Positions 21,004 through 49,183 of a stretch of DNA of 64,000 nt are shown here, in pieces. The stretch comes from an uncultured Candidatus Saccharibacteria bacterium (lineage in GTDB: Bacteria; Patescibacteriota; Minisyncoccia; Minisyncoccales; UBA5738): NCBI GenBank assembly GCA_964623335.1, contig CAZUST010000003.1:869-64868 (forward strand), written 5' to 3'. Numbering within the stretch: the stretch's first letter is position 1; the number at the start of each line of letters is the position of its first letter. Under the pieces are notes generated by a model. The model had not been told where the DNA came from. It saw nothing but the letters and a program-made list of their open reading frames with translations, and did not search any database. Made by a program: the position numbers and the translations under genes.

Positions 21004-21241
21004 CAAACTTCCGCGAATACGCCAAAGATTGACTTAAAAACCCGGTCCCGGTGAGTGATTATTAAATTTGCCGTATAAAAACCGGCCGCTGAAAAAACGT
21101 GATCCTCTGAAAATACAAGTTGCCAAGGTGAAACCTCGCCGATCACATCAAGATTACCCCTTTAAAAATCCGGCACGTTTATTTTAACTGCCGGAATACC
21201 TCGGAGATCATCGATCCGCATATGAATCGTCCGGCAATAGT

Positions 21242-25158: not shown

Positions 25159-25170
25159 TTTTATTCCGTA

Positions 25171-25305
25171 AAAAATATATTTCCAAAATGTGTTTCAATA
25201 CCGCGGGGCGTTAACCCCGCGAATCAGCCGAAGGAGCGCCTCCTTGGAAATCCTCGAAATCCGCAATCTTGAGGCAAAACCTCAAGGAATTGCGGATTCT
25301 AAAAG
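25171..25305 (+). repeat. Copy b of the 'AT-box plus three-hairpin' structured element
   Basis: Box AAAAATATATTTCCAAAATGTGTTTC, then hairpins CCGCGGGGcgttaaCCCCGCG, AAGGAGcgcCTCCTT and ATCCGCAATcTTGAGGcaaaaCCTCAAggaATTGCGGAT. It starts 13 nt from the mreB start codon. Confidence 0.6.
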
Positions 25306-27684: not shown

Positions 27685-27700
27685 AATTCCGATTTATGAT

Positions 27701-27730
27701 TTATGATTTATGATTTATGAATAAAATGCG
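27701..27730. repeat. Heptamer tandem repeat (GATTTAT)x4, immediately upstream of the rseP start
   Basis: gatttatgatttatgatttatgatttatga. A related block lies upstream of rpsG at 62415-62455. Confidence 0.6.
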
Positions 27731-27780
27731 ATTCCGCTTTTATTCTTAAAAACCCTAAATCGCGGTTCGTAAATCGCAGA

Positions 27781-29405: not shown

Positions 29406-29711
29406 AAACTTTACGGAATTGCGCGTTTAAAATTCAAAATTAGGAGTCAAGCCCCTCGGAGCTTTCACTTCTCGGGGCTTGCGGTATCTGCATCGTCAAA
29501 GACGAAATTTTCTAGCCGCCGTACGCCAGTACGGTTTCGGCGCAATTTCATCTTTTCCTCGCACCTGCCGCAATCACGCAATTCCTGTCGCGTATTAACA
29601 ACCGCGTAGTCACCGGCCAATTGAATTTATATTTTTCAAATGTATTTCGCCTCCCGGAATAACGAACCCGCGAGCGGCGACTTTGGCGAAACGGAGAATT
29701 AACAAACTTTT

Positions 29712-29900
29712 CCGCGGAAATACCGTGCCACTTTGCGGTAGTTTATTTACCCGCCGGAATCCCTCGGGGATGAATGGCGGGGAATCAAACTATCACGCCG
29801 CCTTGGGCGCGCGGTAGTTTATTTACCCGCCGGAATCCCTCGGGGCCCTGCCCCGGGGATGAACGGCGGGGAATCAAACTATTGCAACGCTTTGCGATAG
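29712..29900. repeat. Tandem array of two full and one degenerate GC-rich hairpin repeat units (family 'GC-hairpin')
   Basis: The unit is ..GCGCGCGGTAGTTTATTTACCCGCCGGAATCCCTCGGGG(ccctgcccc)ATGAACGGCGGGGAATCAAACTAT... The stem CCCGCCG/CGGCGGG encloses ATCCC/GGGAT. The array abuts the stop codon of mreB paralog 2. Confidence 0.7.
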
Positions 29901-29901
29901 T

Positions 29902-30900
29902 TTATTTCTTGGCCATGATCGATTTTTTGTAGAATTCCAAGTTTTCCAAGACCGCGCCGGTACCTTTAGCCACGCAAAGCAGGGCATTGTCGGCGACGAC
30001 GCAAGGCACGCCGATGGAATTGGTAACCAGTTCGGCAAGATTGCGCATCAGGCTGGAACCGCCGGCCAAAACCATACCCTTATCCATAATGTCGGCAGAA
30101 AGTTCGGGGGGCGTGTCGCGCAAAACCACTTTGATCGTTTGCATAATTTCGGCCAAGGAGTCCTGCACGGCTTCACTTACCTCATTGGAATCGATCTTTA
30201 CATTGCGGGGAAGACCCGAAACAAGGTCGCGGCCCTTGATCTGCATTACTTTGGGTTCTTTTTCGGGGATGGCAGTGCCGATATTGATCTTGATATCCTC
30301 CGTGGTTTGGTCGCCAATCGCCAGATTGTACTTGCGTTTAACGTAATCGACAATCGCCGCGTCCATTTTGTCGCCGGCAATACGCAATGATTGGAAATTA
30401 ACGATCCCGCCCAGCGAGATCACCGCCACTTCAGAAGTACCGCCGCCGATATCCACAATCATATTGCCCGAGCAGGAATGAATCGGAACACCCGCGCCGA
30501 TCGCCGAAAGGATCGGCTCCTTGCAAAGGTAAACCGCTTTGGCGCCCGCGTTCATGCCCGCTTCAATGACGGCACGGCGTTCAGTGGAAGTGATACCGGC
30601 GGGAACACTGATAACCAGTTCAGGTTTGAAGAAACGGAATTTACCGGAAACCTTATCGATAAAATAACGGATCATCGCTTGAGTCACGACAAAATCGGCG
30701 ATCACGCCGTCTTTCATAGGCCGGTAAACCCGGATCGTGTCCGGAGTGCGCCCGATCATCTCGTTGGCTTCGCGGCCTACCGCCAAAATTTTGTTATCGT
30801 CCAGGTCAACGGCCACCACCGACGGTTCCTGCAGAACGACGCCTTTTTTGGGCACGAATACCAGCGAATTCCTTGTTCCCAAGTCGATTCCAATTTTCAT
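29902..30900 (-). CDS. mreB: Rod-shape-determining actin homolog MreB (paralog 2)
   Basis: MKIGIDLGTRNSLVFV, DIGGGTSEVAVISLGG, and an MreB-like sequence throughout. Confidence 0.85.
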   Translation of the reverse strand: MKIGIDLGTRNSLVFVPKKGVVLQEPSVVAVDLDDNKILAVGREANEMIGRTPDTIRVYRPMKDGVIADFVVTQAMIRYFIDKVSGKFRFFKPELVISVPAGITSTERRAVIEAGMNAGAKAVYLCKEPILSAIGAGVPIHSCSGNMIVDIGGGTSEVAVISLGGIVNFQSLRIAGDKMDAAIVDYVKRKYNLAIGDQTTEDIKINIGTAIPEKEPKVMQIKGRDLVSGLPRNVKIDSNEVSEAVQDSLAEIMQTIKVVLRDTPPELSADIMDKGMVLAGGSSLMRNLAELVTNSIGVPCVVADNALLCVAKGTGAVLENLEFYKKSIMAKK

Positions 30901-30984
30901 ATCAGTTCGAAAATTTATTAATCTGGCAGAATACCCCGACGCAGAACATCAAGAATAGATGCCAGCCCGTAGCATAACGGTAAC

Positions 30985-31135
30985 GAAGCGGAGGATTAAC
31001 AAACTTTTTCGCGAGAATACCGCGCCGCCTTGGGCGCGCGGTAGTTTATTTACCCGCCGGAATCCCTCGGGGATGAACGGCGGGGAATCAAACTATCACG
31101 CCGCCTTGGGCGCGCGGTAGTTTATTGAGAAAGTC
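30985..31135. repeat. GC-rich hairpin repeat unit plus partial unit, with the GAGGATTAACAAACTTTTTCGCG flank
   Basis: Same unit as at 29.7 kb, including the identical ACCCGCCGGAATCCCTCGGGGATGAACGGCGGGG core. Confidence 0.7.
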
Positions 31136-31204
31136 TTAACCGTGTTTTTGAGTTCTTTAACTCTAGCCCATTTTGCGAATTTAATCAATTCGAATTTCCC
31201 GCAG

Positions 31205-31320
31205 TAAAATAAATTTTATATTTTCCATTTGAGGCCGCGATCGGGGTATTAACCCCGATCTTGCGGCCAAAGGGGGCACCCCTTGCAAGATTACTTGCGA
31301 ATTACCTAAGGAATCCTTTT
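31205..31320 (+). repeat. Copy c of the 'AT-box plus three-hairpin' structured element
   Basis: Hairpins GCCGCGATCGGGGtattaaCCCCGATCttGCGGC and AAGGGGgcaCCCCTT show compensatory changes relative to copies b and d. Confidence 0.55.
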
Positions 31321-31572
31321 GGCGCGCCCCGGGGCAAAGCCCCGAGGTATTCTGGCGGGTAAATAAAGAAAAGGAGCGATTGAATCGCCCATGCCGTTAC
31401 GTGTCAGCGGGCGCACCCGACTCGCACCTCCTTAATGTCGCTTTGACAATTACTCCGGAAAGAGCGCGCGGTTCACCATCTTTGCGCTCCGCGCGAAAAC
31501 ATTCCGGGTGAATGCATATCGGACCGGCTAAATCCGTCATTGTTACGACCTCTTTTGCAATGTTTATATTAT

Positions 31573-31761
31573 AGACCTACTGCGTAAATATTTCCTACTG
31601 CAATTTCCATATTTTGGCTGCGCCGAATTCGTCAATCGTCGGCATATTTAAGCCAATATGCCTCCCTCGTTTTTGTGAAACGAGACTGCGAGCAGACATT
31701 CCTCATTCGGCTCGCGCGAAATCTGAAAATTTAGTCGCGTAAATATTTACGCAGTAGGTCT
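31573..31761. mobile_element. MITE-like element copy 1 (189 bp, 21-bp terminal inverted repeats AGACCTACTGCGTAAATATTT)
   Basis: The termini are exact reverse complements. Internal hairpins include CTCGTTTttgtgaaACGAG. The copy at 32996-33185 is nearly identical. Confidence 0.65.
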
Positions 31762-31767
31762 TATAAT

Positions 31768-32949
31768 TTAATTCTTCCGGTTTTCAGCCAGCACTGTCGC
31801 GACAACTACCGCCAGCACGACCGCAGAACCGGTAAAGAAAAGCCGGCGGTAGCCCAGAGGAGCGATCAGTAATCCCGCGGTTAAAGAACCGAGGGCCGTA
31901 CCCAAGGGCGAAAAAATCGTGTCGAACGCGGCCGCCTCTTCCGGTTCGTTCTTAGATTTGCCGGCGATCAAAGACGAACGGCCGGCGTTGCAAATAAACG
32001 CGCCAGCACCTTTAAAAAAATCCACGATAAATACCGCCAGGAAATTCAGACAGGCCGCCGGAAAGGCGAAAAAACCGGAAAACAGTCCCGCGGTCACCGC
32101 GCCCCGGATAATACTGGCACGGCCATTGTTCTTTTGATGCCGGCGGATGAAAACAAAATAGATAACCGAAAAAAATGCCGACGAGGCCGCGGTGTAGAAG
32201 ATCACCATATCGCGAGTCCAAGCCAGCGAGTCTTTAAGAAAAAGGACGAAAAATGCCGCGTAAAGGCCGCTCATCCAAAGCACCGCCGAAGATACGGCCA
32301 GATAAGGCAGTATTTTGATATCGGCGATACGCGCAAAAAGATGCCGCCACTGGGCGGTCCAACCAGTTAGGGAAATTTTGCGGCCGTTAAATTTAGCCGA
32401 AACACCCCAAAGGCGCGTTGCGGCCACGGCCAGCGCGGACAAAGTGATGGCCACGCTCAATGAGAAAACCGCCGTAAAACCGGAGCGCCAAATCAAAAAT
32501 CCACCGATAACCGGCGCGATCGCATCGGCCCAGATGGGCGCGTTATAAAACCAGGAAAATCCGTGCTCGATATTTCGCAAAGGATAGGCCATCAACAAGA
32601 TGCGGCAGGAAGTAAAAAATAGCGACGCCGAAACCCCCAGCGCAATCTGCCAGTAATAGAAATACGTTTCCCGGGCGCCAAAAATCATCGCCAGCGCGTA
32701 GGCGCCGTAGCCAAAAATTCCCAACATCATCATCAACGCCGGATTGGTTTTGCGCGAAAAAAATCCGGCCAGCGGGGCGCACAACGCGATCGGCAAATAA
32801 ACCAGCAGATAAGAATAACCAATTTGCGGCAACGAAAGCCCTTCAGCCGCCAAGAACAACGGGAAATAAGCCGAAAACAGTTTATAACCGAACATCAGTA
32901 AAAAATGAACCGCGGTAACATCGCGGACAACCAAGGAATTATTTTCCAT
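31768..32949 (-). CDS. MFS-family transporter
   Basis: About 12 predicted TM helices with MFS-like organisation. The gene is flanked on both sides by the same MITE. Confidence 0.7.
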   Translation of the reverse strand: MENNSLVVRDVTAVHFLLMFGYKLFSAYFPLFLAAEGLSLPQIGYSYLLVYLPIALCAPLAGFFSRKTNPALMMMLGIFGYGAYALAMIFGARETYFYYWQIALGVSASLFFTSCRILLMAYPLRNIEHGFSWFYNAPIWADAIAPVIGGFLIWRSGFTAVFSLSVAITLSALAVAATRLWGVSAKFNGRKISLTGWTAQWRHLFARIADIKILPYLAVSSAVLWMSGLYAAFFVLFLKDSLAWTRDMVIFYTAASSAFFSVIYFVFIRRHQKNNGRASIIRGAVTAGLFSGFFAFPAACLNFLAVFIVDFFKGAGAFICNAGRSSLIAGKSKNEPEEAAAFDTIFSPLGTALGSLTAGLLIAPLGYRRLFFTGSAVVLAVVVATVLAENRKN

Positions 32950-32995
32950 ACAAAATTATTCTAGCACAACAATTAAATTTAAGTATTTATATAAT

Positions 32996-33185
32996 AGACC
33001 TGCTGCGTAAATATTTCCTACTGCAATTTCCATATTTTGGCTGCGCCGAATTCGTCAATCGTCGGCATATTTAAGCCAATATGCCTCCCTCGTTTTTGTG
33101 AAACGAGACTGCGAGCAGACATTCCTCATTCGGCTCGCGCGAAATCTGAAAATTTAGTCGCGTAAATATTTACGCAGTAGGTCTA
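32996..33185. mobile_element. MITE-like element copy 2 (190 bp), direct orientation relative to copy 1
   Basis: About 99% identical to copy 1, with one TIR mismatch (AGACCTGCTG). Confidence 0.65.
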
Positions 33186-33238
33186 ATAAAAAAAGCATTT
33201 TCTCGTTCCTTTTGTATAAAAAGAAATAAGAAAATGCT

Positions 33239-33853
33239 TTATAACGATACGGGCCAGTCAGCCTGTATCTCCTGTATCTTTTGCAATTCTTTCATTGCCG
33301 CCATCGCATATTCCTGCTTGGGGCTTTGGGTCAGCCCCATAAGCGCCATGCAGTGCATGCGCTTGCCCTTGCCGCTCAACAGCCCCTTGCCGGAAATACC
33401 TTTTGCCTCATTAGCCGGCTCAAAGGTTTGGGCCAGTGTGTGCAATGTTTCCGTATCCACCCAGATCACTTCTCTGTCGTCCCCGCTATCGGCAAAAGTG
33501 AAACGGGGATGCGGCTCGTGATAAATCGTAACCATAGCTTGGTCACGCGTCTTCTCGTTTCCGAGAAAGACGGTGTAAAATGCCGGCATTTTTGAAAGGA
33601 AAATTCTTATTCCGGCACGATCCAACACCGCCTTTTCGACGGTCAACGCGGCGTGATTATAGCCGTACTTATCACCTTCGGTGGTAAGCATAGCACGACC
33701 CGGCAACTCAAAATTACCACGGTAGGAAACCCCTTCGTTGATTGAAGTGGTTGCGGTGCGGCGGTAGAGAAGTAATTTCCCAAAATCTTTTCCCTCTTCA
33801 TTGTTAATTATCGCAGCGTAAACGCCGATCGATGCGATTATTTTTTCTTCCAA
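33239..33853 (-). CDS. Hypothetical protein, possibly a Nudix-fold protein with a degenerate Nudix box
   Basis: GNFELPGRAML...EKAVLDRAGI resembles GX5EX7REUXEEXGU, but the catalytic Glu residues are not conserved. Confidence 0.35.
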   Translation of the reverse strand: MEEKIIASIGVYAAIINNEEGKDFGKLLLYRRTATTSINEGVSYRGNFELPGRAMLTTEGDKYGYNHAALTVEKAVLDRAGIRIFLSKMPAFYTVFLGNEKTRDQAMVTIYHEPHPRFTFADSGDDREVIWVDTETLHTLAQTFEPANEAKGISGKGLLSGKGKRMHCMALMGLTQSPKQEYAMAAMKELQKIQEIQADWPVSL

Positions 33854-34002
33854 GATTAAAACCTCCTGTAATTTCAGTTTATTTATTTTATGATTATTTT
33901 TAGTTTATGTCAATAGCTATCGCGCGGTTGAAAATTTTGGCCAATATTATAAGCTCTAATTAATGGCACCTGTCCGTTTTATCCGCGGCGGGAAAATTTC
34001 TC

Positions 34003-35328
34003 ATGAATTACATTGTTCGCAAAACGATCTTCATTTTTTTTGTTTTGCTTTTTATTATCGCGGCGCCCAGCCTGGCGCTTTACGCGCAAGGATACCGGCT
34101 GAATCTCCCCTACACCAACGGGGCTAAACTGATCGTAAAAACCGGCGGCGTATTTCTTAAAGTAAATCCGAAGCAAGCCGATGTTTACGTCAACGGCAAT
34201 CTTTCCGAACAGACCGATTTTTTCCTTGGTTCATCTTTGGTTGAGAATCTGTTGCCCCGCAAATACAATATTGAAGTAAAAAAATCCGGCTATAAGCCTT
34301 GGAATAAAAACCTTGAAGTGAAAGAAAAGGAAGTCACGGAAGCGCGCAATATTTTGCTTTTTCCGGAAAAACTGGCTTTTTCGCCCGTCGAGGAAAATAT
34401 CGTAGATATTTCAGCCGCCCCAGACCAGACTAAAATCGCGATTCAAGAGCGAACCGCCGACGGCTGGAATTTGCGGCTTTACGATCTGGCCAGCGGCATG
34501 ACCACCAGTTTGGCCGATGACGGCGACTTTTCAGTCAAAGACGCAACCATGGCCGGCTTGGAGTGGATCGATAATTCCCAAACATTAAAGGTGTCGATTT
34601 GGGCGAATAATAAAACCGCGGATTATGCCATCGCCACCGACAAAACTCCGGCCAAAATCGCGCGGCTGACGACAGATACGGCCGCGAATATCTCTACCAC
34701 GACGGTGGATTTGGCAACGGACAGCACGGACGGCAACACCTATAAATTGCAACAGGACGGCTATATCTATAAAAAACCCGCGCAAAAACAAGCTGAAAAG
34801 ATTTCTGAAGCAAGAATGGAGATTGATCCGGCGGCAACTTATAAGTTATGGGTTATTCGCGATTACTATTTCGTTAAAAAAGGATTTGAACTTTACGTAC
34901 TTGTTCCCGGGGCAACTAATTTTAAAAAAATATTCGACGGTTTAACATCGAATCCGGAACTTTCGCCCGACGGTAAAAAAGTAGTATACACGTCAAATTC
35001 CGAAGTCTGGGTATTTTTCTTGGACGATAAAATCGACCAACCCGCTGCCCGGGCCGGCGACAACGAGTTTATCATCCGGCTTTCGGAAAAAATCTCCGAT
35101 TGCCGCTGGCTAAACCCGAACCACTTGATATTCATTGCCGGACAAACAATCAGGGCCGCCGAGATCGACACCCGCGACCGGGTGAATATAATCGAACTGG
35201 CGAAAATATCCGATATTACCGGCAACGAACAAGCGTCGGAAGGCGCACGGCTTTTTTGGGACAACAACAGCAAGACAGCTTATATATTCGCCAACCAAGC
35301 ACTTTACCGATCCACCCCGATAGAATAA
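34003..35328 (+). CDS. Membrane-anchored protein with a PEGA-like domain and a TolB-like beta-propeller region
   Basis: N-terminal TM helix. VKVNPKQADVYVNGNL is PEGA-like. SPDGKKVVYTSN is a propeller blade motif. Confidence 0.45.
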   Translation: MNYIVRKTIFIFFVLLFIIAAPSLALYAQGYRLNLPYTNGAKLIVKTGGVFLKVNPKQADVYVNGNLSEQTDFFLGSSLVENLLPRKYNIEVKKSGYKPWNKNLEVKEKEVTEARNILLFPEKLAFSPVEENIVDISAAPDQTKIAIQERTADGWNLRLYDLASGMTTSLADDGDFSVKDATMAGLEWIDNSQTLKVSIWANNKTADYAIATDKTPAKIARLTTDTAANISTTTVDLATDSTDGNTYKLQQDGYIYKKPAQKQAEKISEARMEIDPAATYKLWVIRDYYFVKKGFELYVLVPGATNFKKIFDGLTSNPELSPDGKKVVYTSNSEVWVFFLDDKIDQPAARAGDNEFIIRLSEKISDCRWLNPNHLIFIAGQTIRAAEIDTRDRVNIIELAKISDITGNEQASEGARLFWDNNSKTAYIFANQALYRSTPIE

Positions 35329-35380
35329 TACCATAAGTGTTGTAATCGGTTTTTAAAAGCTGCGGCACAGGGCGGTTGTA

Positions 35381-35516
35381 AAAAATATATTTTCCAAATG
35401 TGTCTCGATACCGCGGGGCGTTAATGCCGCGGATCAGCCAAAGGAGCGCCTCTTTGGGAATCCTCGAAATCAGTAATCCTGAGGCAAGATCTCAAGGAAT
35501 TACCGATTTTAAAAAC
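35381..35516 (+). repeat. Copy d of the 'AT-box plus three-hairpin' structured element (in the 3' UTR of the plus-strand gene 34003-35328, before its terminator)
   Basis: About 85% identical to copy b. Stem changes are CCGCAAT to CAGTAAT and ATTGCGG to ATTACCG. Confidence 0.6.
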
Positions 35517-35518
35517 TA

Positions 35519-35552
35519 AAAACCGTCCCGAGGTTGCCGGGACGGTTTTTTT
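35519..35552. terminator. Bidirectional rho-independent terminator
   Basis: AAAAACCGTCCCGaggttgCCGGGACGGTTTTTTTAG, with A/T runs on both sides. It sits between convergent genes. Confidence 0.6.
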
Positions 35553-35589
35553 AGTTTCAATATTATTCAGCAGAAATTACCTAAAACTA

Positions 35590-35778
35590 TTGTTTGGCGG
35601 ATTCGCAAATCCCTTATCAAATTTATATTTTGTTTTACCTCCTCTCCGGAAGACGGCCTTAACGGCGCGGATATCGCTAATATTGCATCAAGGATATATC
35701 CTTACGGAGTATCTAAGAAGTTATCATCCCATCGGTTCCCAAGAATTTGTCCCAGAGGCTATCTTCGGATAAACTACC
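35590..35778. repeat. Composite ~190-nt element (family 3), copy 1
   Basis: The segment ...GCGGATATCGCTAATATTGCATCAAGGAT...GTATCTAAGAAGTTATCATCCCATCGG...TATCttcgGATAAACTACC is about 75% identical to 49200-49350. A partial copy lies at 4850-4932. Confidence 0.55.
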
Positions 35779-35857
35779 CGGAGCAAAACCCCGGGTATTC
35801 TGGCGGGGAAATAAAACCCAAAAGGTATGTTTACCATCGAAAGGGATCCTTTAATCC

Positions 35858-36433
35858 CTACCGCTTCGCCCATTGCGGCGCGCGGCGGGCCTTCTTCAAA
35901 CCCGGCTTCTTTCTCTCCTTCATGCGAGGATCGCGGGTCAGATAGCCGGATTTCTTCAAACGCTTTTTAAAATCGGCGTTGAAAAGCACCAGAGCCCGGG
36001 TAATGCCGTGGCGAATGGCATCAGCCTGCGCGATAATGCCGCCGCCTTTAACCACAACACTAATCCGGAAACGATCGGTGCAGTTCATCTTTACCAGAGG
36101 CGCTTCAATAATGTTTTTGAATTCAGCGGGAACGAAATACTTATCAAAAGCTTTGTTGTTGACGGTAAAGCTTTTGTCGCCGCGAGTGTAAAGGCGCACG
36201 CGCGCGATCGCAGTCTTGCGGCGGCCGACAGCTTCGTAGTACCGATCGGCTTTTTTCTTTCCCGAAGCGTCAGTTTCCTGGCTATCGTTCTCGACCGCCT
36301 CAATAGCGGCCTCTTTCAACACTGCAGGAATCGTTTCGGGTTGCTCTTCGCTTTTGACAACCTTGACCGGACGGGCTGCCGGTTTGGCGGCTACCGCAGG
36401 TTCGGGCTTTGAATTTTGCGTGGTTTTTGCCAT
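35858..36433 (-). CDS. rpsI: Ribosomal protein S9 (with ~60-aa Ala/Lys-rich N-terminal extension)
   Basis: The C-terminus ...GGGIIAQADAIRHGITRAL...GYLTRDPRMKERKKPGLKKARRAPQWAKR is canonical S9. Confidence 0.9.
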   Translation of the reverse strand: MAKTTQNSKPEPAVAAKPAARPVKVVKSEEQPETIPAVLKEAAIEAVENDSQETDASGKKKADRYYEAVGRRKTAIARVRLYTRGDKSFTVNNKAFDKYFVPAEFKNIIEAPLVKMNCTDRFRISVVVKGGGIIAQADAIRHGITRALVLFNADFKKRLKKSGYLTRDPRMKERKKPGLKKARRAPQWAKR

Positions 36434-36443
36434 ATGATTTCGT

Positions 36444-36803
36444 TTACATCTGGACGCTCAGGCGCTTAATCATCCTGTCGCGCAATTTATTGTCCGGCAA
36501 CATCCGGTATACCGCGTGGCGCAGAAGCTTGGCCGGATCCTTGGCCATAACGTCATTCCAAGTTTCTTCTTTCAATCCGCCCATATAGCCCGTGTAATGA
36601 TAATTGATTTCGCTTTCCATTTTATCGCCGGTGATCTTCACATCCTTAAAATTTTTGACCACTACAAAATCGCCCGCGTCAATATGAGGTGCGTAGCCAG
36701 GCTTATCCTTGCCCCGGAGCAGTACCGCGACCCGTGTCGCGAGCTTGCCTAAAACGATCCCGGAGGCATCAATTGTATGCTTTTCTCTTTTTATCGTAAT
36801 CAT
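36444..36803 (-). CDS. rplM: Ribosomal protein L13
   Basis: L13 sequence, located next to rpsI. Confidence 0.9.
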   Translation of the reverse strand: MITIKREKHTIDASGIVLGKLATRVAVLLRGKDKPGYAPHIDAGDFVVVKNFKDVKITGDKMESEINYHYTGYMGGLKEETWNDVMAKDPAKLLRHAVYRMLPDNKLRDRMIKRLSVQM

Positions 36804-36808
36804 GTTGT

Positions 36809-37252
36809 TTAGACGTTTGCTTTAGGGGTTTTGACCGCCTTCTTGGGCGCCCCCTTCCCGGCCCTTACGGCTTTGGCAATCGCCGGAGCGATCACTGCCG
36901 GCCGGTCCAATAGCTCGACAATCGCCATCGGCGCGCCATCTTTCACGCGCGGACCCAGTTTGGCAATGCGAGTATAACCGCCATTGCGATCTTTAAAACG
37001 GGGAGCGATCTCGGTAACAAGCTTGCGAACCGCTGCCATCGGCAGGAATGCCGCCAGAGCTTTTTTACCCGCCAAATCATTCTTTTTGGCCTTGGTTATT
37101 AGTTTTTCCACCAGCGTCGCGGTCGCGCGAGCGCGAACTTTAGTGGTCGTGATCTTTTCTTGCAATATCAAATTAACCGCAAGCGAGCGCTTAAAAGCTT
37201 TGCGTTGATCGGTTTTCCGGCTGAATTTTTTTCCTTTTATTCTCTTATACAT
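36809..37252 (-). CDS. rplQ: Ribosomal protein L17
   Basis: L17 core with an Ala/Lys-rich C-terminal tail. Confidence 0.9.
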   Translation of the reverse strand: MYKRIKGKKFSRKTDQRKAFKRSLAVNLILQEKITTTKVRARATATLVEKLITKAKKNDLAGKKALAAFLPMAAVRKLVTEIAPRFKDRNGGYTRIAKLGPRVKDGAPMAIVELLDRPAVIAPAIAKAVRAGKGAPKKAVKTPKANV

Positions 37253-37273
37253 GTTATCTTGTATTCTTTGAAT

Positions 37274-37963
37274 TTATGCCTCAAAAGCTTTATGCAGCAT
37301 CGCGAAATGGTTTACCAATATTTCGGACGCGCGCGAAAATGCGGTTTCGGCAGTTATGGTGCCGTCAGTTTCGATGTCAAAGATTATTTTATCAAAATCG
37401 GTACGATCGCCGACGCGCATATTTTGCACCCTGAAACCAACTTTCTTGATTGGCGCATACATCGCGTCCATCGGGATGACGCCGATCTCCAGTTTGGATT
37501 TCGCGGAACGGGCATCTTTGGAAGTGTAGCCGGTCCCCTTTTCCACTTTGATCTCCATCTCCAACTTGGAGCTTTTAGCCGTCAGATTGGCGATGTGCTG
37601 GTCGGGATTGACCAATTCCAGCTGGCTGGGAACTTCCAGATCCTTGCCAGTGATTTCCTTTTCCCCCTTGGCTTTTAAAACGCAGATTTGCGCCTCATCT
37701 CCGGTCATCTTAAAGCGAAGCTGACGCACATTGATCATGATCGTGATCACATCTTCCATAACTCCGGCGATCGTTGAAAATTCGTGGGGCACGCCCTTGA
37801 TGTTTATCTGGGTAACCGCCGCGCCCTCCAAAGACGACAGCATCACCCGCCGCAAAGCATTGCCGATGGTAACACCATACCCCGGGAAAAGAGCCTCGAT
37901 TTCAATGAGGGCTTGGTTGCCTTTCTTTTCGATAACTTTTGGAGTCAATGGTAACGGAATCAT
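37274..37963 (-). CDS. rpoA: RNA polymerase alpha subunit, N-terminal domain only (229 aa)
   Basis: RpoA N-terminal domain motifs are present. There is no C-terminal domain, and rplQ starts 21 nt downstream. Confidence 0.85.
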   Translation of the reverse strand: MIPLPLTPKVIEKKGNQALIEIEALFPGYGVTIGNALRRVMLSSLEGAAVTQINIKGVPHEFSTIAGVMEDVITIMINVRQLRFKMTGDEAQICVLKAKGEKEITGKDLEVPSQLELVNPDQHIANLTAKSSKLEMEIKVEKGTGYTSKDARSAKSKLEIGVIPMDAMYAPIKKVGFRVQNMRVGDRTDFDKIIFDIETDGTITAETAFSRASEILVNHFAMLHKAFEA

Positions 37964-38058
37964 GTTTGTTTTAGCTGTAAATCCTCGAACGCTTTAGGCC
38001 GCGGAAGCCATATTATAGTCCAGGAAATCAACAGCGATTAAATATTGGATTTTACAAT

Positions 38059-38691
38059 TTAGCGGGCATAGAATTCAAACACCGAACCAATTTCCGCTAC
38101 GGGTTGCAATTCTTCCATTGTCACGTCGCCGGTCTTCTTTCCTTCCATTTTCTCGGCGTTGACCGCCAACCAAGCCGGAGCTTTGTAATTTTTCATAATT
38201 CCCTGCTGTTTGGTAAAGTAAGCGTTCTTTAACTTCCGGGGCGCCACGCTAACCGTATCCCCGGTCTTTATTTGGCGGGAAGGCAGGTTCACCGGTTTTC
38301 CGTTAACCAAGAAATTGTTGTGGCTGACCAACTGGCGCGCGGTAATCCGCGAACCGGCAAATCCCATGCGGAAAACCACATTGTCCAGCCGGTATTCCAG
38401 TTTTTTCATCAATTCCAGCGGCAGGTTGTCGGCACTCCCCTTCTTGGCCAGAATCGCTTTGGCGTAGTTCTTGAATTGCTGTTCGCGCAAATTGTACCAA
38501 ATCTTCAGATTTTGCTTTTCGCGCAGCTCGCGGCCGTATTCGGATAATTGCTTCGTCCTTCTTTTTCCCTTTTTGCCGGGCGCGGTCGGACGACGAACAA
38601 TGGCGCATTTTTGTCCGTAGCAACGGTCCCCCTTCAGAAACAATTTTACGCCGGCTCTCCGGCATTTTTTACATTTGATATTCGTATCCAT
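38059..38691 (-). CDS. rpsD: Ribosomal protein S4
   Basis: N-terminal Cys cluster CKKCRRAGVKLFLKGDRC and an S4 domain. Confidence 0.9.
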   Translation of the reverse strand: MDTNIKCKKCRRAGVKLFLKGDRCYGQKCAIVRRPTAPGKKGKRRTKQLSEYGRELREKQNLKIWYNLREQQFKNYAKAILAKKGSADNLPLELMKKLEYRLDNVVFRMGFAGSRITARQLVSHNNFLVNGKPVNLPSRQIKTGDTVSVAPRKLKNAYFTKQQGIMKNYKAPAWLAVNAEKMEGKKTGDVTMEELQPVAEIGSVFEFYAR

Positions 38692-38735
38692 TTTATTGCT
38701 TGAAAAATTTGATCGGCATTACCAGACCGGCGCGA

Positions 38736-39188
38736 TTACACGCGGCGAGTCTTGCGAGGACGGCATCCGTTATGCGGAACCGGCGTCATGTCCTTGATAG
38801 AAACGATATCCACGCCACGGGCCGCCAACGACCTGACGGCGGAGTCGCGGCCGGACCCGATGCCTTTTACAATCACTTGCACCCTTTCAATGGCGAGCTT
38901 TTTTACCACTTCGGCTACCGCTTCGGCGACTTTTGAAGCCGCGAACGGAGTTCCCTTCTTGGTACCCTTGAAACCGATGCTGCCGGCAGATTTCCAGCAT
39001 AAAACGTTTCCGCCTTCGGTAGCCAACGAAACAATCGTATTGTTGTACGAAGAAGATATGAAAACTATTCCCTGGCGGGTGCGCGCCGTGGCTTTCACCG
39101 TGACCTCCTTTTTTACTTTAGCCTCAACGGCATCGCGTTCTTTCAGGAGCTCTTCCTTATTTTGAGTGGCAACATGCTTCTTACCCAT
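38736..39188 (-). CDS. rpsK: Ribosomal protein S11
   Basis: S11 sequence ending ...TPVPHNGCRPRKTRRV. Confidence 0.9.
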   Translation of the reverse strand: MGKKHVATQNKEELLKERDAVEAKVKKEVTVKATARTRQGIVFISSSYNNTIVSLATEGGNVLCWKSAGSIGFKGTKKGTPFAASKVAEAVAEVVKKLAIERVQVIVKGIGSGRDSAVRSLAARGVDIVSIKDMTPVPHNGCRPRKTRRV

Positions 39189-39309
39189 CGTAGTAAATTT
39201 AAAGTTTAAATATCAAAATGAAAAATTTTGGTGTTAAAATTTCACGTTGCGAAATTTTAACTATATATTATTCCTTAATTTTGATTTTTGATTTTTCAAT
39301 TTTTAATTT

Positions 39310-39726
39310 TTATGTCGGGCTGGCGGCGGGCTTGCGACCCGAGCCGACGGTCTTGCGGACATTGCCGCGAACGGTACGGGTATTTGTCCGGGTGCGCTGG
39401 CCTCTAACCGGCAAATTGCGCGAATGGCGCATACCTCTCCAAGCCACAATATCCTTAAGGCGCTTGATATTCATCATGATATCGCGCTTCAGATCGCCTT
39501 CAACGCGATAGTGTTTCTTGATGATTTCTTCAATCTGCTTCATCTGCTCGGGGGTTAGGTCCTTGGCCTTAATCTTGGCATCAATCTTGGCTTCCGCCAA
39601 AACCTTCTTTGCAGATGAAAAACCGATACCGTAAATGTATCCCAAGGCGATACCTATTTGTTTGTTGTCGGGAATATTGACACCGATAATGCGTGGCATA
39701 GTTATTTCTTTATGCGCTGTACTCAA
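39310..39726 (-). CDS. rpsM: Ribosomal protein S13
   Basis: MPRIIGVNIPDNKQIGIALGYIYGIG. Confidence 0.9.
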   Translation of the reverse strand: MSTAHKEITMPRIIGVNIPDNKQIGIALGYIYGIGFSSAKKVLAEAKIDAKIKAKDLTPEQMKQIEEIIKKHYRVEGDLKRDIMMNIKRLKDIVAWRGMRHSRNLPVRGQRTRTNTRTVRGNVRKTVGSGRKPAASPT

Positions 39727-39793
39727 AACAAAAACCTAAACTCAAATCTTTTTTGGTTTAAATTTGAGCCATCCGCGTACACACTATACTATT

Positions 39794-39910
39794 TTAACCT
39801 TGACGTTGCTTGTGTTTGGGGTTCTTTTTGCAAATAACGTAAATGTTGCCGCCCCTCTTGACGATCTGGCAATCCTTGCATATTTTTCTAACCGATGCTC
39901 TGATTTTCAT
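39794..39910 (-). CDS. rpmJ: Ribosomal protein L36 (38 aa; absent from the ORF track)
   Basis: Minus-strand translation [38 protein letters not shown] is canonical L36 with its zinc ribbon. It lies between infA and rpsM as expected. Confidence 0.85.
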
Positions 39911-39925
39911 ATTATTTACCTGATG

Positions 39926-40144
39926 TTACCTTCCGCGGTACACAATGCGGCCGCGGGTTTCGTCGTAGGGACTCATTTCTACCGTAACCTGGTCGCCGGG
40001 AAGAATCTTTATCCGGAACATCTTTAATTTTCCCGCCAGATGGCAAAGGATCTCCCGTCCGTCAGAAAGCTTGACGCGAAAATTCGCGTCCGGCAACGAT
40101 TCAAATACTTGTCCTTGAAATCTCAGTATTTTTTGGTTTGACAT
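39926..40144 (-). CDS. infA: Translation initiation factor IF-1
   Basis: S1-like fold; ...[39 protein letters not shown]... is canonical IF-1. Confidence 0.9.
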
Positions 40145-40233
40145 GAAACAATTAAAAAGTATATCAAATAATCTAAATTAAGTCAAATATCCCGACCGGC
40201 ATTTTGCTTGATTTATGCCGCTCCAAATCGTTT

Positions 40234-41676
40234 TTATTCGATGATGGTTTGAACTTCGATCCGATCCAGGTCACGCGGTATTGAATTCCGCCAAATCGGG
40301 GTAAATTTGATTTCAACCTTCATACCTTGTTTCTCAAGAAACATTTTGGCTTCCTGGCCGCTCCTCTCCGACAATCCTTTTTTGAGCTCGTTGTCTTCCA
40401 ACCCGGGATATACCGGAACCCGGGCTGACAATTCCAGAAAAGCATTGCCGGTCACGGGATCCAGCCCTTCATAGGCCGAACTGACTTCCAGTTTAGGTTG
40501 ATAGGCCACCGAACCCTGAGGCACCTTACTTAGAATAAAATCTTTACCCATATTGTCAAGGTCAGATTTCCGATAGACCACTGCTGTCGCTTTTCCAGTC
40601 ATTTGGCTGGTAATCTTACCCAAACTATCGCCTAATTTTGCTTGCACATCGGCGGCGCCAAAATCATACTTTTGGCTTTCCGCGACCATTTCATAACCTT
40701 CCGGAACCTGCAACCGCAATTTCTTTTCCATTTCACTCTTGGCCAAATCGGTGATCGCCTGTTTGGCATTATCCAAGTCGGCTTGGGTTACCAAAGGCGC
40801 ACTACCGGTTGAACCGCCCTGAAACTTTTCGTAGGATTGGGCGATTACATAAATATATTGCGGAGTTCCCGCCAATCCAGGAACAGAAAACGCCGCCGGC
40901 TCAATGTTGTATTTTTCTCCGGGTCGATCGGCAATAACCGTTACGGTTGCGGAACTTTTAGGGGGTAATACTATATCTTGCGTGGTCCGAAACCAAGGAG
41001 TTTCGTCGGCGGCCAACGGCGGATTAAATTTACTTTTTTCAGCCTCCAAGCGCGTATTTTTTACCAATCGCTGCTCGGTCGTATAATTATTAAAAATTTT
41101 GACGGTTCCCGTGGCTTTGCCTTGGGTGTCTTTTTTACCGGTAACGTCCGATTGGTTGCTGATGGTGTCTTCGACGGTAAGTATCAAACCGGAAATAATT
41201 CCCTTTTCTTCATTAACTCCTTGGGCGGCGGGATCGACTATTACTCGCGTTTTATCGCTTAGCTCGCTGGTCGCCGGCCAGATTTTAACCATCGCGCGGG
41301 CAGTTTTCCAATCGATGGCATACATGATCGCGGCAACAACAACCCCGGCTAAAATCAATTTAACCGCCCATCCTTTAATTTTGCCGCCCAATGAATTCCC
41401 GTTATCATCGTCATCGAACCGGGAACTTTCCGATTGACCCATAAAAGTTACTCGCGGTTTTAGCGGCGGCAGCCCAGGCTCAATCGGCGTTTGTATCGGA
41501 GGTCCAGGAATAATTTCCGGTTGGGGCGCGGCGGATTCCGGCTCGAGGCGGGAAAGAGGTTCCGAAGCGGAAATTTTAATGCCTGGAATTTTTATCTCTT
41601 CAGCGGGCGCGGCCGGTGTTTTAATATTGGCGGCACTGTCACGCGGAGGAAAAATATCGATTACTTTTTTTGCCAT
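40234..41676 (-). CDS. Hypothetical membrane-anchored protein with a Pro-rich N-terminal region
   Basis: Pro-rich N-terminus, a single TM helix (LILAGVVVAAIMYAI) and a large extracytoplasmic domain. No motif recognised. Confidence 0.45.
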   Translation of the reverse strand: MAKKVIDIFPPRDSAANIKTPAAPAEEIKIPGIKISASEPLSRLEPESAAPQPEIIPGPPIQTPIEPGLPPLKPRVTFMGQSESSRFDDDDNGNSLGGKIKGWAVKLILAGVVVAAIMYAIDWKTARAMVKIWPATSELSDKTRVIVDPAAQGVNEEKGIISGLILTVEDTISNQSDVTGKKDTQGKATGTVKIFNNYTTEQRLVKNTRLEAEKSKFNPPLAADETPWFRTTQDIVLPPKSSATVTVIADRPGEKYNIEPAAFSVPGLAGTPQYIYVIAQSYEKFQGGSTGSAPLVTQADLDNAKQAITDLAKSEMEKKLRLQVPEGYEMVAESQKYDFGAADVQAKLGDSLGKITSQMTGKATAVVYRKSDLDNMGKDFILSKVPQGSVAYQPKLEVSSAYEGLDPVTGNAFLELSARVPVYPGLEDNELKKGLSERSGQEAKMFLEKQGMKVEIKFTPIWRNSIPRDLDRIEVQTIIE

Positions 41677-41864
41677 CTTTTTATAAAAAGCATTATGCTC
41701 GCAATGCGGGCGGAACGATTAGATAAAATCAGTTTGTTATGGTTTATTATAACAAAATAATAATGAAGTGAAAATAAAAAAGACAAAAAGACGCGGAGCA
41801 ATTCGCGCCTTTGGATTCACTAAATCAACCCTTCCCGATTCCGGCCATTTTTTAAGGTAAAAAA

Positions 41865-42596
41865 TTATTGCAAGTTAGCGACAGAAATGATGAGGGCGGA
41901 AAATTCGGCAGGCTCCAAGGAGATGCCGCCGACGAGCAGGCCGTTATAGCCAGCTTCCTCGAGATAAGACGCGCCGTTTTTGGAATTCACGCTACCGCCA
42001 TAAAGCAATGGAATCTTGTCACTGGAAATATTGCCGATGAATTTGGAAACAACCGCGGCTTCTTCGGGACGGCAAGCCTCGCCAACACCGATAGCCCAAA
42101 CCGGTTCGTAAGCAATGATTATTTTAGCGGTATTTACATTGATATCTTGCAATCCTTCTTTTATTTGTTCTTCGATGATATCCGTAATTTTTCCCTCGAT
42201 ACGCTCCTCGCGCGTTTCGCCCACGCATACAATCGGCGTTAGCCCCGCGGCCAAGGCGGCTTTGGTTTTTTTGTTCACTGATTCATTGGATTCATTGAAA
42301 TATTTTCGGCGTTCGGAATGGCCGATAATAACATATTCGCAGCCTGCATCGGCAATTTGCCCCGCTGAAATGGCGCTCGTGAACGCACCGCAATTTTCCC
42401 AATAACAATCTTGGCTTCCCAAAGCAGCCAGACCCCTTAAGCCGTCTTTGACCAAGTAAAAAAGGTGAGCCGGCGGGCAAATCGCAATCTGAACTTTTTT
42501 ACTCTTCTTTATTCTCTTTTTATAGCCGGCAAGGATCTTTTTGGCGTCTTTTACAGTCGCGGGATTGCATTTCCAATTAGCGATAACATAGTTCAT
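41865..42596 (-). CDS. tpiA: Triosephosphate isomerase
   Basis: ANWKCN, IIGHSERR and AYEPVWAIGVGE motifs are present. Confidence 0.9.
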   Translation of the reverse strand: MNYVIANWKCNPATVKDAKKILAGYKKRIKKSKKVQIAICPPAHLFYLVKDGLRGLAALGSQDCYWENCGAFTSAISAGQIADAGCEYVIIGHSERRKYFNESNESVNKKTKAALAAGLTPIVCVGETREERIEGKITDIIEEQIKEGLQDINVNTAKIIIAYEPVWAIGVGEACRPEEAAVVSKFIGNISSDKIPLLYGGSVNSKNGASYLEEAGYNGLLVGGISLEPAEFSALIISVANLQ

Positions 42597-42677
42597 ATTT
42601 AATTTATATTTTTAAAAGATTTATCTCTGGGTAAACAAGACTTTCGCGATGACGCGAAAGCCCTATCCTGTTTCCAA

Positions 42678-43724
42678 TTATTGTTGGCGCAAATATTCGG
42701 CCGCGGCTTCGGGAACAATCGTGGAAATTTCCATATGGGCGCCCATTTCAAACCCGGCCATGGTCGCGGTCTTGGGCCGGATGGTGAAATGCCAGTGGTA
42801 ATAATCATAGTCCTTACCGTCAGCGGGAGCCGTATGTAAATAGAAATTATACGGCGGATCGCTTAACCCCTTATAAATCTTTTTCATCACTCGGGAAAAT
42901 ATATCGGCCAGGCTATTTTTTTCGTCTTCGGTTATCTGTTCAAAATACGGTGAATGTTTTTTGGGCGTGATCACTACCTCGAAGGCCACTTTGGACGCGA
43001 AAGGACAAAGCGCGATGAAATCACCATTCTCGCAGACCATCCGCATTCCGGCTTCAAGTTCCCAAGCAATCATCTCGCATCCCAAGCATTTTTTGGCGCG
43101 GCGGTAGTATTTCTTTGAATTTTCCAGCGCCCCGCGCAGATCAACATCGATCAGCGGCGTGGTAATGATCTGAGAATGAGGATGCGGCTGGGATGCGCCC
43201 GCTTCCACTCCGTGGTTATGAAAAATAGAAATATACTTGACCAAACGGTTGCCCTTTAAGGCAATATAGCGCAAATGATAGGCATTAATAATTTCTTTGA
43301 TCGCCGAAATATCCATCAAGGCAATGCTTTTTTCGTGATCGCGGGTGATCACCACCTCACAAAAGCCGGCCGCGTCCATAAAATGGTAAACCGGGCCCAC
43401 GTGGACCCTGCGCAAACGGGAACTCGCGGGCGGGCAAAATGCCGGATATTTATTGGGGATAACCGCTAAACTCCAATCCGCGGGAAGAGTGCCATCGCTA
43501 ATCTTTTCCCCTTTGGACATTACCAAAACCGGCTTTGACCGGCTATCAAGGTTGCAAAAAGAACAATCCTTAGGAAGCATGTCGGAATGTATCCGCTCCC
43601 GCTTGAAAGCTTCCGGCCGTTTGCCGCGGCCGGGCGAGATCACCACCCAATCCCGCGACACTTCGTCGTAGCGCAGTTGAGACGAGTGGCATTTGCCATT
43701 CAATAGATCTTTGGAATTTTCCAT
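42678..43724 (-). CDS. galT: Galactose-1-phosphate uridylyltransferase-like HIT-superfamily enzyme
   Basis: Cys/His zinc motif (CSFCN) and the H-x-H-x-Q active-site signature (PHPHSQII). Confidence 0.65.
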   Translation of the reverse strand: MENSKDLLNGKCHSSQLRYDEVSRDWVVISPGRGKRPEAFKRERIHSDMLPKDCSFCNLDSRSKPVLVMSKGEKISDGTLPADWSLAVIPNKYPAFCPPASSRLRRVHVGPVYHFMDAAGFCEVVITRDHEKSIALMDISAIKEIINAYHLRYIALKGNRLVKYISIFHNHGVEAGASQPHPHSQIITTPLIDVDLRGALENSKKYYRRAKKCLGCEMIAWELEAGMRMVCENGDFIALCPFASKVAFEVVITPKKHSPYFEQITEDEKNSLADIFSRVMKKIYKGLSDPPYNFYLHTAPADGKDYDYYHWHFTIRPKTATMAGFEMGAHMEISTIVPEAAAEYLRQQ

Positions 43725-43732
43725 ATTATTTT

Positions 43733-43916
43733 ATTACCCGCCGGAATCCCACGGGGCCTTGCTCCGGGGATGAATGGCGGGGAATCAAACTAGCGGGGCG
43801 CCTTGGGCGCGCGGTAGTTTATTTCCCCGCCGGAATCCCACGGGGCCTTGCTCCGGGGATGAATGGCGGGGAATCAAACTAGCGGGGCGCCTTGGGCGCG
43901 CGGTAGTTTATTTGTC
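43733..43916. repeat. Two perfect tandem 89-bp GC-rich hairpin repeat units
   Basis: ACCCGCCGGAATCCCACGGGGCCTTGCTCCGGGGATGAATGGCGGGGAATCAAACTAGCGGGGCGCCTTGGGCGCGCGGTAGTTTATTT occurs twice (89-bp period). The array sits between galT and the GT2 gene. Confidence 0.75.
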
Positions 43917-44877: not shown

Positions 44878-45022
44878 TTCTTTAATTTATCATAAATTGA
44901 CAAACCGAACAAAAAGCACAAAGCGCAAAGCTTTTATTTGTTTATTTTATTTAACTGCCAGACTACCTCGGAGCTTATCGGTTCAAGCACGAAAACCACC
45001 CGGCAGTCAGTCTCGAGGCAGT

Positions 45023-45805
45023 TTATTCACCATTATCGTCCGGTTCCGATTCTTCAGGCGCCTTGGTTAAAATATGACAACCATCGGCTAATACTGCCAG
45101 GGTATGTTCGCTATGCGCGGCCCAGCTGCCATCCTTGATCTTATAAGTTTGCTTGTTGGCGGCCAGACAGATCTCGACATTGCCGGCGGTGATCATCGGC
45201 TCGATACAGAAGACCATCCCCGCTTTAATGACCGGTCCCCGATGCCGGCGTCCATAATTGAAGATTGGCGGATCCTCGTGCAGGCTACGACCGATGCCAT
45301 GGCCGCACAGATTACGCACCACATGAAATCCTTGACTTTCAACGTAGCGTTCAATGGTTTCGCCCACATCGCCAAAAGTATTTCCCGCCCGGGCTTTTTT
45401 AATCCCGTATTTGAGTGCTTTTTTGGCGACTTTCATCAAGCGACGCATTTCGGGCGGAACATTGCCAACCGCAACAGTAGAAGCCATGTCGGTATGAAAT
45501 CCTTTATAGACCATGCCGATATCGAGACTTACCAAATCGCCGTCCCTGACCACTCTTCGGGCTGACGGAACGCCGTGAACCACTTCTTCATTGATTGAAA
45601 TGCAACTTACCGCCGGAAAACCGCCCTCACCCAAAAACGAGGGCTTGGCGCCACACTTAGAAATAAGTTTAGCGGCCAAGGCGTCAATTTCTTTGGTGGT
45701 CGCGCCCGGAACCGTGGCCGTTTCCATTTCCTTGAGAATGGACGCCAAAATCCGGCCGCCTTCGGCCATTATTTCGATCTCTTCGGGTGTTTTAAGAATA
45801 ATCAT
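45023..45805 (-). CDS. map: Methionine aminopeptidase type I
   Basis: MIILKTPEEIEIMAEGGRILA... plus metal ligands (D, D, H, E, E). The ORF-track start at 45946 would overlap adk. The internal ATG at 45805 gives a canonical N-terminus. Confidence 0.85.
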   Translation of the reverse strand: MIILKTPEEIEIMAEGGRILASILKEMETATVPGATTKEIDALAAKLISKCGAKPSFLGEGGFPAVSCISINEEVVHGVPSARRVVRDGDLVSLDIGMVYKGFHTDMASTVAVGNVPPEMRRLMKVAKKALKYGIKKARAGNTFGDVGETIERYVESQGFHVVRNLCGHGIGRSLHEDPPIFNYGRRHRGPVIKAGMVFCIEPMITAGNVEICLAANKQTYKIKDGSWAAHSEHTLAVLADGCHILTKAPEESEPDDNGE

Positions 45806-49163: not shown

Positions 49164-49183
49164 TGTTTTTTCTAGTATGTCTA

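Follow-up and report, generated by a model that had tools for sequence, protein, structure and literature searches.

A family of small interspersed palindromic repeats, probably mobile, in the operon spacers of a Nealsonbacteria-like bacterium

The locus and its host

The 64,000-nt stretch of contig CAZUST010000003.1 analysed here (the window) is a piece of bacterial chromosome that carries a type IV pilus cluster, gatCA, two mreB paralogs, holB, frr, proS and the alpha, spc, S10 and str ribosomal operons, and its intergenic spacers hold the GC-rich, hairpin-forming repeat that is the subject of this report. The product of the second mreB paralog (MreB2) is 92% identical to MreB of Candidatus Nealsonbacteria DGGOD1a, for which a closed 1.16-Mb genome is available (CP092821.1), and the GalT-like protein is 84% identical to its counterpart in a Patescibacteria metagenome-assembled genome (MAG); the host is therefore a Nealsonbacteria-like member of the candidate phyla radiation (CPR). 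Flanking extensions (~12 kb of new sequence from L011, a 9.7-kb extension of the same contig, and L018, a contig from another sample) brought the accessible sequence to ~77 kb, while the look-up for walking outward from the open reading frame (ORF) at 139-1674 gave no match.

A hairpin repeat at about 13 intergenic loci

A sequence-only reading of this DNA had described tandem arrays of a GC-rich hairpin together with solitary copies in reverse orientation. Pattern searches, Tandem Repeats Finder (TRF), BLAST, a covariance model built from nine units (R1) and direct reading recovered all of them, confirming that the hairpin repeats are real. The unit is 76-89 bp long and lies head to tail at 29739-29907, 31042-31126 and 43727-43913; in it a long hairpin (P1) is followed by a small one (P2) and by a terminal (T/C)AG-TTTATT. 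The left arm of P1, TTTACCCGCCGGAATCCC, has 8 matches in the window at up to 3 mismatches (0.13 expected from shuffled sequence), the right arm, GGCGGGGAATCAAACTA, has 11 (0.26 expected), and the flank that had been said to accompany the arrays, GAGGATTAACAAACTTTT, has 4 (0.17 expected); this flank exists, although it is not a separate sequence but the 3' half of a ~130-nt variant that we call leader-type. TRF placed the third array at 43730-43913 with a period of 89, 2.1 copies and 97% matches (score 354), so that its two 89-bp units are 97% identical rather than identical, as had been thought. BLAST and the covariance model also retrieved the copies on the reverse strand (~20426-20547, 31327-31367, 35777-35815 and 61738-61876), and three further copies (21180-21250, 44943-45027 and 52829-52878) had not been listed before. 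Altogether there are ~13 loci with at least 17 modules in the accessible sequence, every one intergenic, and five of them abut stop codons. The copies in the window, including the leader-type, shortened, AACTGCC-type and mini variants, are as follows.

29640-29738, + strand: diverged leader-type element D, at the head of array 1; a pattern match, its 3' half (29687-29738) being homologous to the leader (..GAGAATTAACAAACTTTTCCGCGG..small hairpin..GG); BLAST aligns 29687-29823 with 30984-31126 at 89.5%
29739-29814, + strand: unit W1, 76 nt, short-loop P1 and P2
29815-29907, + strand: unit W2, P1 with the 13-nt inner-hairpin insert, variant P2 (TTGCAACGCTTTGCGA) and terminal TAGTTTATT, which overlaps the TAA stop of mreB paralog 2 (29902-30900, - strand); R1 94 bits, fold z -7.3
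30913-31041, + strand: leader-type element, 129 nt (TTTATT-AATCTGGCAGAATACC..GAGGATTAACAAACT..small hairpin-GG), beginning 12 nt from the mreB2 start codon
31042-31126, + strand: unit W3 with terminal TAGTTTATT, the end of array 2; R1 90.8 bits
43727-43814, + strand: unit W4, first in array 3 (TRF), 5' flank TTTATT without TAG, its start 3-9 nt from the galT-like start codon
43815-43913, + strand: unit W5 with terminal TAGTTTATT, its end 8 nt from the stop codon of a GT2 glycosyltransferase gene; R1 118.9 bits, fold z -5.7
20423-20550, - strand: leader-type element with a tRNA-Met gene on each side (BLAST, R1)
61742-61877, - strand: leader-type element between rpsG (S7) and fusA (EF-G) in the str operon (BLAST, R1)
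31327-31370, - strand: shortened unit, TTTATT with left arm and inner hairpin, right arm deleted
35773-35815, - strand: shortened unit, TTTATT-TCCCCGCCAGAATACC-hairpin-TAG-TTTAT, inserted against the end of an element of another family (E, below)
21180-21250, + strand: AACTGCC-type, TTTATTT-TAACTGCCGGAATACC..TCCGGCAATAG-TTTATT, its 3' TTTATT overlapping the TAA stop of ORF 21242-21760 (- strand)
44943-45027, + strand: AACTGCC-type, 85 nt, between the stop codon of map (M24 peptidase) and its terminator (R1 match)
52829-52878, + strand: mini copy, a 43-nt hairpin (TTTACCCGCC-GA-GGCGGGAAATCAAGCT..) between rplP (L16) and rpmC (L29); R1 E=9e-4

Anatomy and predicted folding

Taken as a single strand, P1 is predicted to fold as TTTAYCCCGCCGG-AATCCC-[inner hairpin]-GGGAT-CCGGCGGGGAA over a length of 55-68 nt and P2 as GCGCGCC-TTGG-GCGCGC within a palindrome of 20-22 nt, with AAACTA/TAGTTT segments able to close either of them; the DNA-fold z-scores of the hairpins against shuffled sequence range from -3.8 to -7.3. 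The elements contain no long ORFs and have no coding capacity. A search of Rfam brought only tRNAs above the gathering threshold and nothing credible at E<=10 around the repeats.

We aligned nine units, five from the window, one from L011 and three from other metagenomes (L004, L005 and L006). All nine, those from other metagenomes included, have exactly the same right arm, GATGAAYGGCGGGGAATCAAACTA, while the left arm and the loop vary and a 13-nt inner hairpin is present in some units and absent in others. Where subfamilies differ in their arms, the two arms differ together and remain complementary (CCCGCCGG/CCGGCGGG, ACTGCCGG/CCGGCAGT and TTATTAATCC/GGATTAATAA), and the hairpin is therefore the conserved feature.

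(T/C)AG-TTTATT belongs to the end of the unit and not to its beginning, as had been assumed: first and solo units follow a 5' flank of the form nnnTTTATT that lacks TAG, and every unit ends in (T/C)AG-TTTATT, so the element is to be written [TTTATT] TACCCGCC...P1...AAACTA-P2-(T/C)AG [TTTATT]. TTTATT ends 11 of 14 5' flanks (two more carry near variants, TTTATATT and TTTATC, and one has none), and (T/C)AG-TTTATT stands at 9 of 13 3' ends, with variants at the other four. The variants follow the same plan. The leader-type reads TTTATT-AATCYGGCRGAATRCC...GGAGGATTAAYAAACT-small hairpin-TAG-TTTATT, with a longer insert between the arms. In the AACTGCC-type and the mini copy, simpler hairpins lie between the same boundary motifs and their arms reach the element ends; the units share only TACC at both ends. 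Two of the copies on the reverse strand arose by deletion and retain the left arm, the inner hairpin and a TAG-TTTAT end.

Independent assemblies share the repeat junctions

Collapsed reads had been named as a possible source of the pattern. The junctions between unique flank and repeat recur at 100% identity in independent short-read assemblies of several samples, whose contigs end inside the arrays. Three contigs that carry mreB2 (L001-L003) break on both sides, and the leader-type element at 30913-31041 is 100% identical in all three; L015 begins inside array 3 and L016 inside array 1; and the copy between S7 and EF-G (61742-61877) is identical in L011-L014. The repeats are not an assembly artefact, the support covering the junctions and not the number of units within the arrays.

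Related copies stand at unrelated loci in other metagenomes (L004-L006). A right-arm scan of GTDB species representatives gave 0 matches, and one of metagenome contigs gave three real matches; matches in viral contigs (30 and 2 exact 17-19-mers) are due to chance, none of them fitting the covariance model.

The same sites are empty in syntenic relatives

Occupancy of the same intergenic sites was compared in four syntenic relatives (L007; L020, which is DGGOD1a; L057; and L058-L060). R1 scans and BLAST find the family in none of the four, each of the sites is empty there, and the spacers differ in length:

MFS transporter gene (major facilitator superfamily) to mreB2: 867 bp in the window; 40 bp in DGGOD1a and 82 bp in L057
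mreB2 to holB: 496 bp in the window; about 150-177 bp in DGGOD1a
tRNA-Met to tRNA-Met: 239 bp in the window; 20 bp in DGGOD1a
proS to mreB1 (filled by the F2 family, below): 140 bp in the window; TAG-AAAA-ATG in DGGOD1a

L007 has neither array 3 nor the copies at 44943 and 52829. Its L16-L29 spacer, where the window carries the mini hairpin, is 7 nt long, and it keeps the terminator hairpin 3' of the 44943 copy, with a single GTTTTTT in place of the GTTTATT found on both sides of that copy in the window. At the mreB2 stop codon, where W2 ends, the closest relative, L057, has the empty site GCCAAGAAATAA|TCTTTAAC (|TCTTT). In the window this site is GCCAAGAAATAA|ACTATCGC..., which shows that the array's 3' TTATTT comes from the host and encodes Lys-Lys-stop. 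These comparisons support the proposal that the repeat prefers particular insertion sites, namely TTTATT and stop codons. Five copies have a boundary on or next to a stop codon (those of mreB2, ORF 21242-21760, map, rplP and the GT2 gene), as a preference for the target AATAAA predicts.

TTTATT flanks nearly all copies on both sides, one of the two belonging to the host, and this constant sequence fits a target duplication and an element-borne end alike. The copies show no orientation bias: on what is a single replichore (GC skew is uniformly negative across the window) there are ~6 loci per strand, and relative to the flanking genes ~5 copies are sense and ~7 antisense. In the mechanism that we propose, the element would insert at TTTATT, a hexamer that reads AATAAA on the opposite strand and would be either duplicated as the target or regenerated by the element. 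As AATAAA often holds a TAA stop or sits in AT-rich spacers, copies would land at gene ends and between the genes of operons and leave the genes unbroken.

Formation of the arrays

Leader-type elements can share an array with units. In array 1 (29739-29907) two units follow the diverged leader-like segment, array 2 has the leader-type element at 30913-31041 followed by one unit with its terminal TAGTTTATT, and array 3 (43727-43913) has its two 89-bp units. W1 and W3, at different loci, differ by one mismatch in 76-89 nt, whereas the array neighbours W1 and W2 are ~75% identical and differ by the 13-nt insert and in P2. Identity that is higher between loci than within an array, together with the mixed subtypes, therefore argues for repeated insertion into a regenerated target and not for simple tandem duplication; slippage or unequal crossing-over is disfavoured because either would put like next to like. 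Each element would end in a new TTTATT in which later insertions could land, giving head-to-tail arrays of mixed subtype. The near-identical pair in array 3 may be a local duplication.

Relation to known mobile repeats

We consider that the repeats are probably lineage-specific, small, non-coding, hairpin-forming mobile DNA elements that act like miniature non-autonomous transposons, in the sense of miniature inverted-repeat transposable elements (MITEs), of repetitive extragenic palindromic (REP) sequences and bacterial interspersed mosaic elements (BIMEs), or of BOX elements. We file these small interspersed palindromes as a new MITE/REP-like family, outside every named one. Structure and boundaries are direct observations, as are the absence at syntenic sites, the unbiased orientation and the lack of coding capacity; transposition itself, its single-stranded or duplex intermediate and its enzyme are what we infer.

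Several points weigh against mobility of this kind. All same-species assemblies carry the same copies, so that no presence/absence polymorphism was seen among them, and the relatives used for the empty sites, at 75-93% identity, do not allow proof of the precise sequence before insertion or of a genuine duplication of the target. The ~77 kb, searched by Pfam on ~50 window ORFs and by precomputed Pfam labels in the extensions, yielded no Y1/HUH, DDE or serine transposase that could be assigned to the element. A covariation test on the nine units was not significant, the copies being too alike. The right arm is far more conserved in sequence than the left, which hints at a sequence-specific function or a protein site beyond a mere hairpin. 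Finally, the leader-type has no terminal inverted repeats (TIRs) and the solo units have no outer TAGTTT stem, which makes a classical TIR/DDE mechanism doubtful.

Two other outcomes of the search for a source concern the same ~77 kb. The sole match of the transposase search, a large serine recombinase, was rejected because it belongs to an unrelated integrated element at the tRNA-Asp gene. The accessible sequence contains no insertion sequence either, and so no parent with the same ends.

The nearest alternative, which we regard as unlikely, is that these are true REP/BIME sequences, GTAG-tagged palindromes spread as single-stranded hairpins by a REP-associated tyrosine transposase (RAYT, or TnpA-REP, an HUH Y1 enzyme) encoded elsewhere, the mosaic of P1 and P2 being a BIME. 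The sequence-only reading had likened the repeats to this type, and much of the likeness stands: they are dense, non-coding, extragenic, interspersed, GC-rich imperfect palindromes, lying mostly just 3' of stop codons, as reported for REPs (PMC3733652), and between co-directional genes, and different palindromes are combined in mosaic clusters. P2, a 20-22-nt GC palindrome, directly precedes GTAG in most units (...GCGCGCG-GTAG-TTTATT). Mismatches in the stems on the + strand are more often G.T (17 cells at 8 pairs) than A.C (5 cells at 4 pairs), a weak hint that folding takes place on one strand. The foot of the last hairpin is 10 nt from the 3' boundary, much as at the right ends of IS200/IS605 elements such as IS608.

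The likeness is incomplete in the details that define a REP. REPs are palindromes of 20-40 bp with an unpaired GTAG or CGTC tag, often associated with a RAYT (PMC3733652). Here P2 falls within that range but the dominant hairpin P1, at 55-68 nt, is outside it, and GTAG is predicted to pair with CTAC/CTAT and is missing 5' of first or solo units. A TTTATT boundary repeat is foreign to REPs, the arrays run head to tail where REPs form inverted pairs (REPINs), neither a RAYT nor any other Y1 protein of the PF01797 type was found in the ~77 kb, and the even distribution over the two strands of one replichore shows no strand bias. The phyla listed for REPs number eight, and the Patescibacteria are not among them (PMC3733652).

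In look, the modular head-to-tail layout is most reminiscent of the BOX elements of Streptococcus pneumoniae. Like BOX (boxA-boxB(n)-boxC) and RUP/SPRITE (PMC3049150), the repeats are intergenic, have variable tandem modules with strong predicted structure, would be co-transcribed with their neighbours and have a mobilising enzyme that is obscure or acts in trans. Unlike BOX, they have no boxC-like cap, no sequence relationship and a different target-site pattern, and each module has its own TTTATT and can stand alone. With the Correia elements of Neisseria (Correia repeat enclosed elements, CREE, or Neisseria miniature insertion sequences, NEMIS) and other TIR-MITEs they share a length of ~50-150 bp, a non-coding palindromic sequence, an AT-rich target on both sides, a position near genes and transcripts that fold into long hairpins; but Correia elements have 26-bp TIRs and duplicate TA, whereas here the leader-type has no TIRs, the flanking motif is the 6-bp TTTATT and head-to-tail arrays are common. 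The palindrome-associated transposable elements (PATEs) derived from IS200/IS605 likewise have subterminal hairpins instead of TIRs and insert beside a fixed short target, and a PATE-like right end that recreates its target would explain the head-to-tail arrays; unlike PATEs, however, the present repeats show no orientation bias on one replichore, have no TnpA or TnpB nearby, and have a left hairpin that abuts the target instead of lying ~19 nt away. Two further candidates were rejected: attC sites of integrons (the R'/R'' core consensus does not fit and there are no cassettes) and DNA-uptake sequences (the elements are far longer).

Terminators, RNA structures and CRISPR

The repeat might instead be a host-selected cis-acting structure in RNA or DNA (an mRNA stabiliser, RNase III site, insulator, terminator or protein-binding site) spread by recombination or duplication, and its use as a terminator had been suggested. 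Very stable hairpins, the right arm GATGAAYGGCGGGGAATCAAACTA that is invariant in 9/9 units and the copies inside operons (S7-EF-G, L16-L29 and GT2-galT) speak for such a role. These operon copies must be co-transcribed and would form strong RNA hairpins, which may plausibly affect how stable the mRNA is or how it is processed. In the window arrays, however, the sequence that follows the hairpins on the gene strand is the A-rich AAATAAACTA and not a U-tract. Terminator-like calls (P2 with TTTATTT, P2+TAGTTTATTT) fall on the antisense strand only, which is the + strand, and the copies lie in both orientations relative to transcription; use as an intrinsic terminator is therefore not supported. 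The same operon spacers have no copies in the four relatives, and the copies are therefore not needed by those operons. Shortened and degenerate copies are common, and covariation was not significant. We regard a host-selected cis-acting structure as quite unlikely.

At the speculative end, and hardly to be expected, the elements, far from being inert, could be the visible part of an undescribed single-strand, hairpin-recognising insertion system of CPR bacteria that regenerates its own TTTATT. Together with the F2, E and leader families it might have rewired operon spacers, those of the ribosomal-protein super-operon included, for example as processing sites or translation-initiation contexts, with GATGAAYGGCGGGGAATCAAACTA as the sequence that a new enzyme or RNA-binding factor recognises. 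A clustered regularly interspaced short palindromic repeat (CRISPR) array or an assembly artefact can be dismissed: regular spacing, hairpin formation and the breaks of short-read contigs at the repeats would suit them, but the segments between hairpins are repeated with no unique spacers, as the sequence-only reading had argued, no cas domains occur in the ~50 window ORFs scanned, and the same junctions recur in 3-4 independent assemblies.

Other repeats and elements in the window

Mobile repeats are active in this genome, which has other interspersed families, a textbook TIR-MITE (rep204) among them. F2, the second family, is ~135 nt long and lies at 20865-20996, 25165-25298 and 35378-35514 (+ strand coordinates), with a diverged copy at 31215-31310 and one at 3776-3904 of L011. 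It has three strong hairpins, one with GTTAA in its loop, no Rfam match and no copy in the relatives; stem changes between copies are compensatory (GATCGGGG/CCCCGATC versus CGCGGGG/CCCCGCG). At 25159-25298 a copy with a fold z-score of -5.5 occupies precisely the space from the stop codon of proS to the start codon of mreB1, which in DGGOD1a reads TAG-AAAA-ATG.

The 204-bp rep204 occurs at 31563-31766 and 32986-33189 (98.5% identical) and at 3382-3567 of L011, and its TIRs of ~21 bp (AGACCTACTGCGTAAATATTT) are those of a textbook TIR-MITE. The two window copies, in direct orientation, lie on either side of the MFS transporter gene (31768-32949), an arrangement like that of a composite transposon. 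At ~31130-31175 a remnant resembles the 3' end of an MFS gene with the native MFS-mreB spacer, and suggests a rearrangement.

A third structured family, E (~175 nt), lies at 35600-35780, downstream of rpsI, and at 49180-49350, between rplR (L18) and rpsE (S5) in the spc operon. In L007, rplR has on each side a different repeat of 125 bp, unrelated to E (L007 3938-4062 and 4448-4574); the repeats that occupy a given operon spacer therefore differ between species of this clade. Short intergenic repeats also occur as pairs that are 75-88% identical (5015-5079 with 5671-5735, 4806-4867 with 29620-29683, 53299-53390 with 54856-54935, and 27691-27750 with 62417-62477). Several of them start with an AT-rich near-palindrome, AAAATATATTTT / TATATTTT(C)CAAATG, with which elements F2, D and E begin as well; a promoter, a protein site and an element end are candidate roles for it.

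The region ~5000-20222 looks like an integrated mobile element adjoining tRNA-Asp. Its genes encode the large serine recombinase (18525-20174), a Toprim primase-like protein (15017-17194), an N6/N4 DNA methylase (10052-11878), a ResIII helicase/nuclease (7515-10049) and DUF2726 and DUF6998 proteins. ARAGORN places tRNA-Asp at 20145-20222 (Rfam at 20148-20222), overlapping the 3' end of the recombinase ORF by 30 nt, consistent with integration at a tRNA gene. A tRNA-like sequence was seen by eye at 9100-9180 of L011. The pilus genes of L018 (T2SSE, T2SSF and pilins) are identical to those of the window, and that contig begins just upstream of T2SSE.

Discussion

Elements of this sort are familiar from Proteobacteria, Firmicutes, Neisseria and cyanobacteria. 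CPR/Patescibacteria genomes are regarded as streamlined and gene-dense. The kind of element described here is thus known already and its host is unusual, with no new mechanism on present evidence; a full-text literature search on CPR/Patescibacteria with REP or MITE found no relevant description. There is also a practical warning in these repeats, which fragment short-read MAGs at exactly these sites. The combination of TTTATT next to stop codons and a conserved arm provides a handle for hunting the mobilising enzyme.

For the organism itself, the spacers of one Nealsonbacteria-like species have expanded several-fold, even in the str and S10/spc operons, and are filled by structured repeat families that are absent from its closest sequenced relatives. 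The species thereby offers a dated and comparative example of repeats invading a lineage of obligate symbionts.

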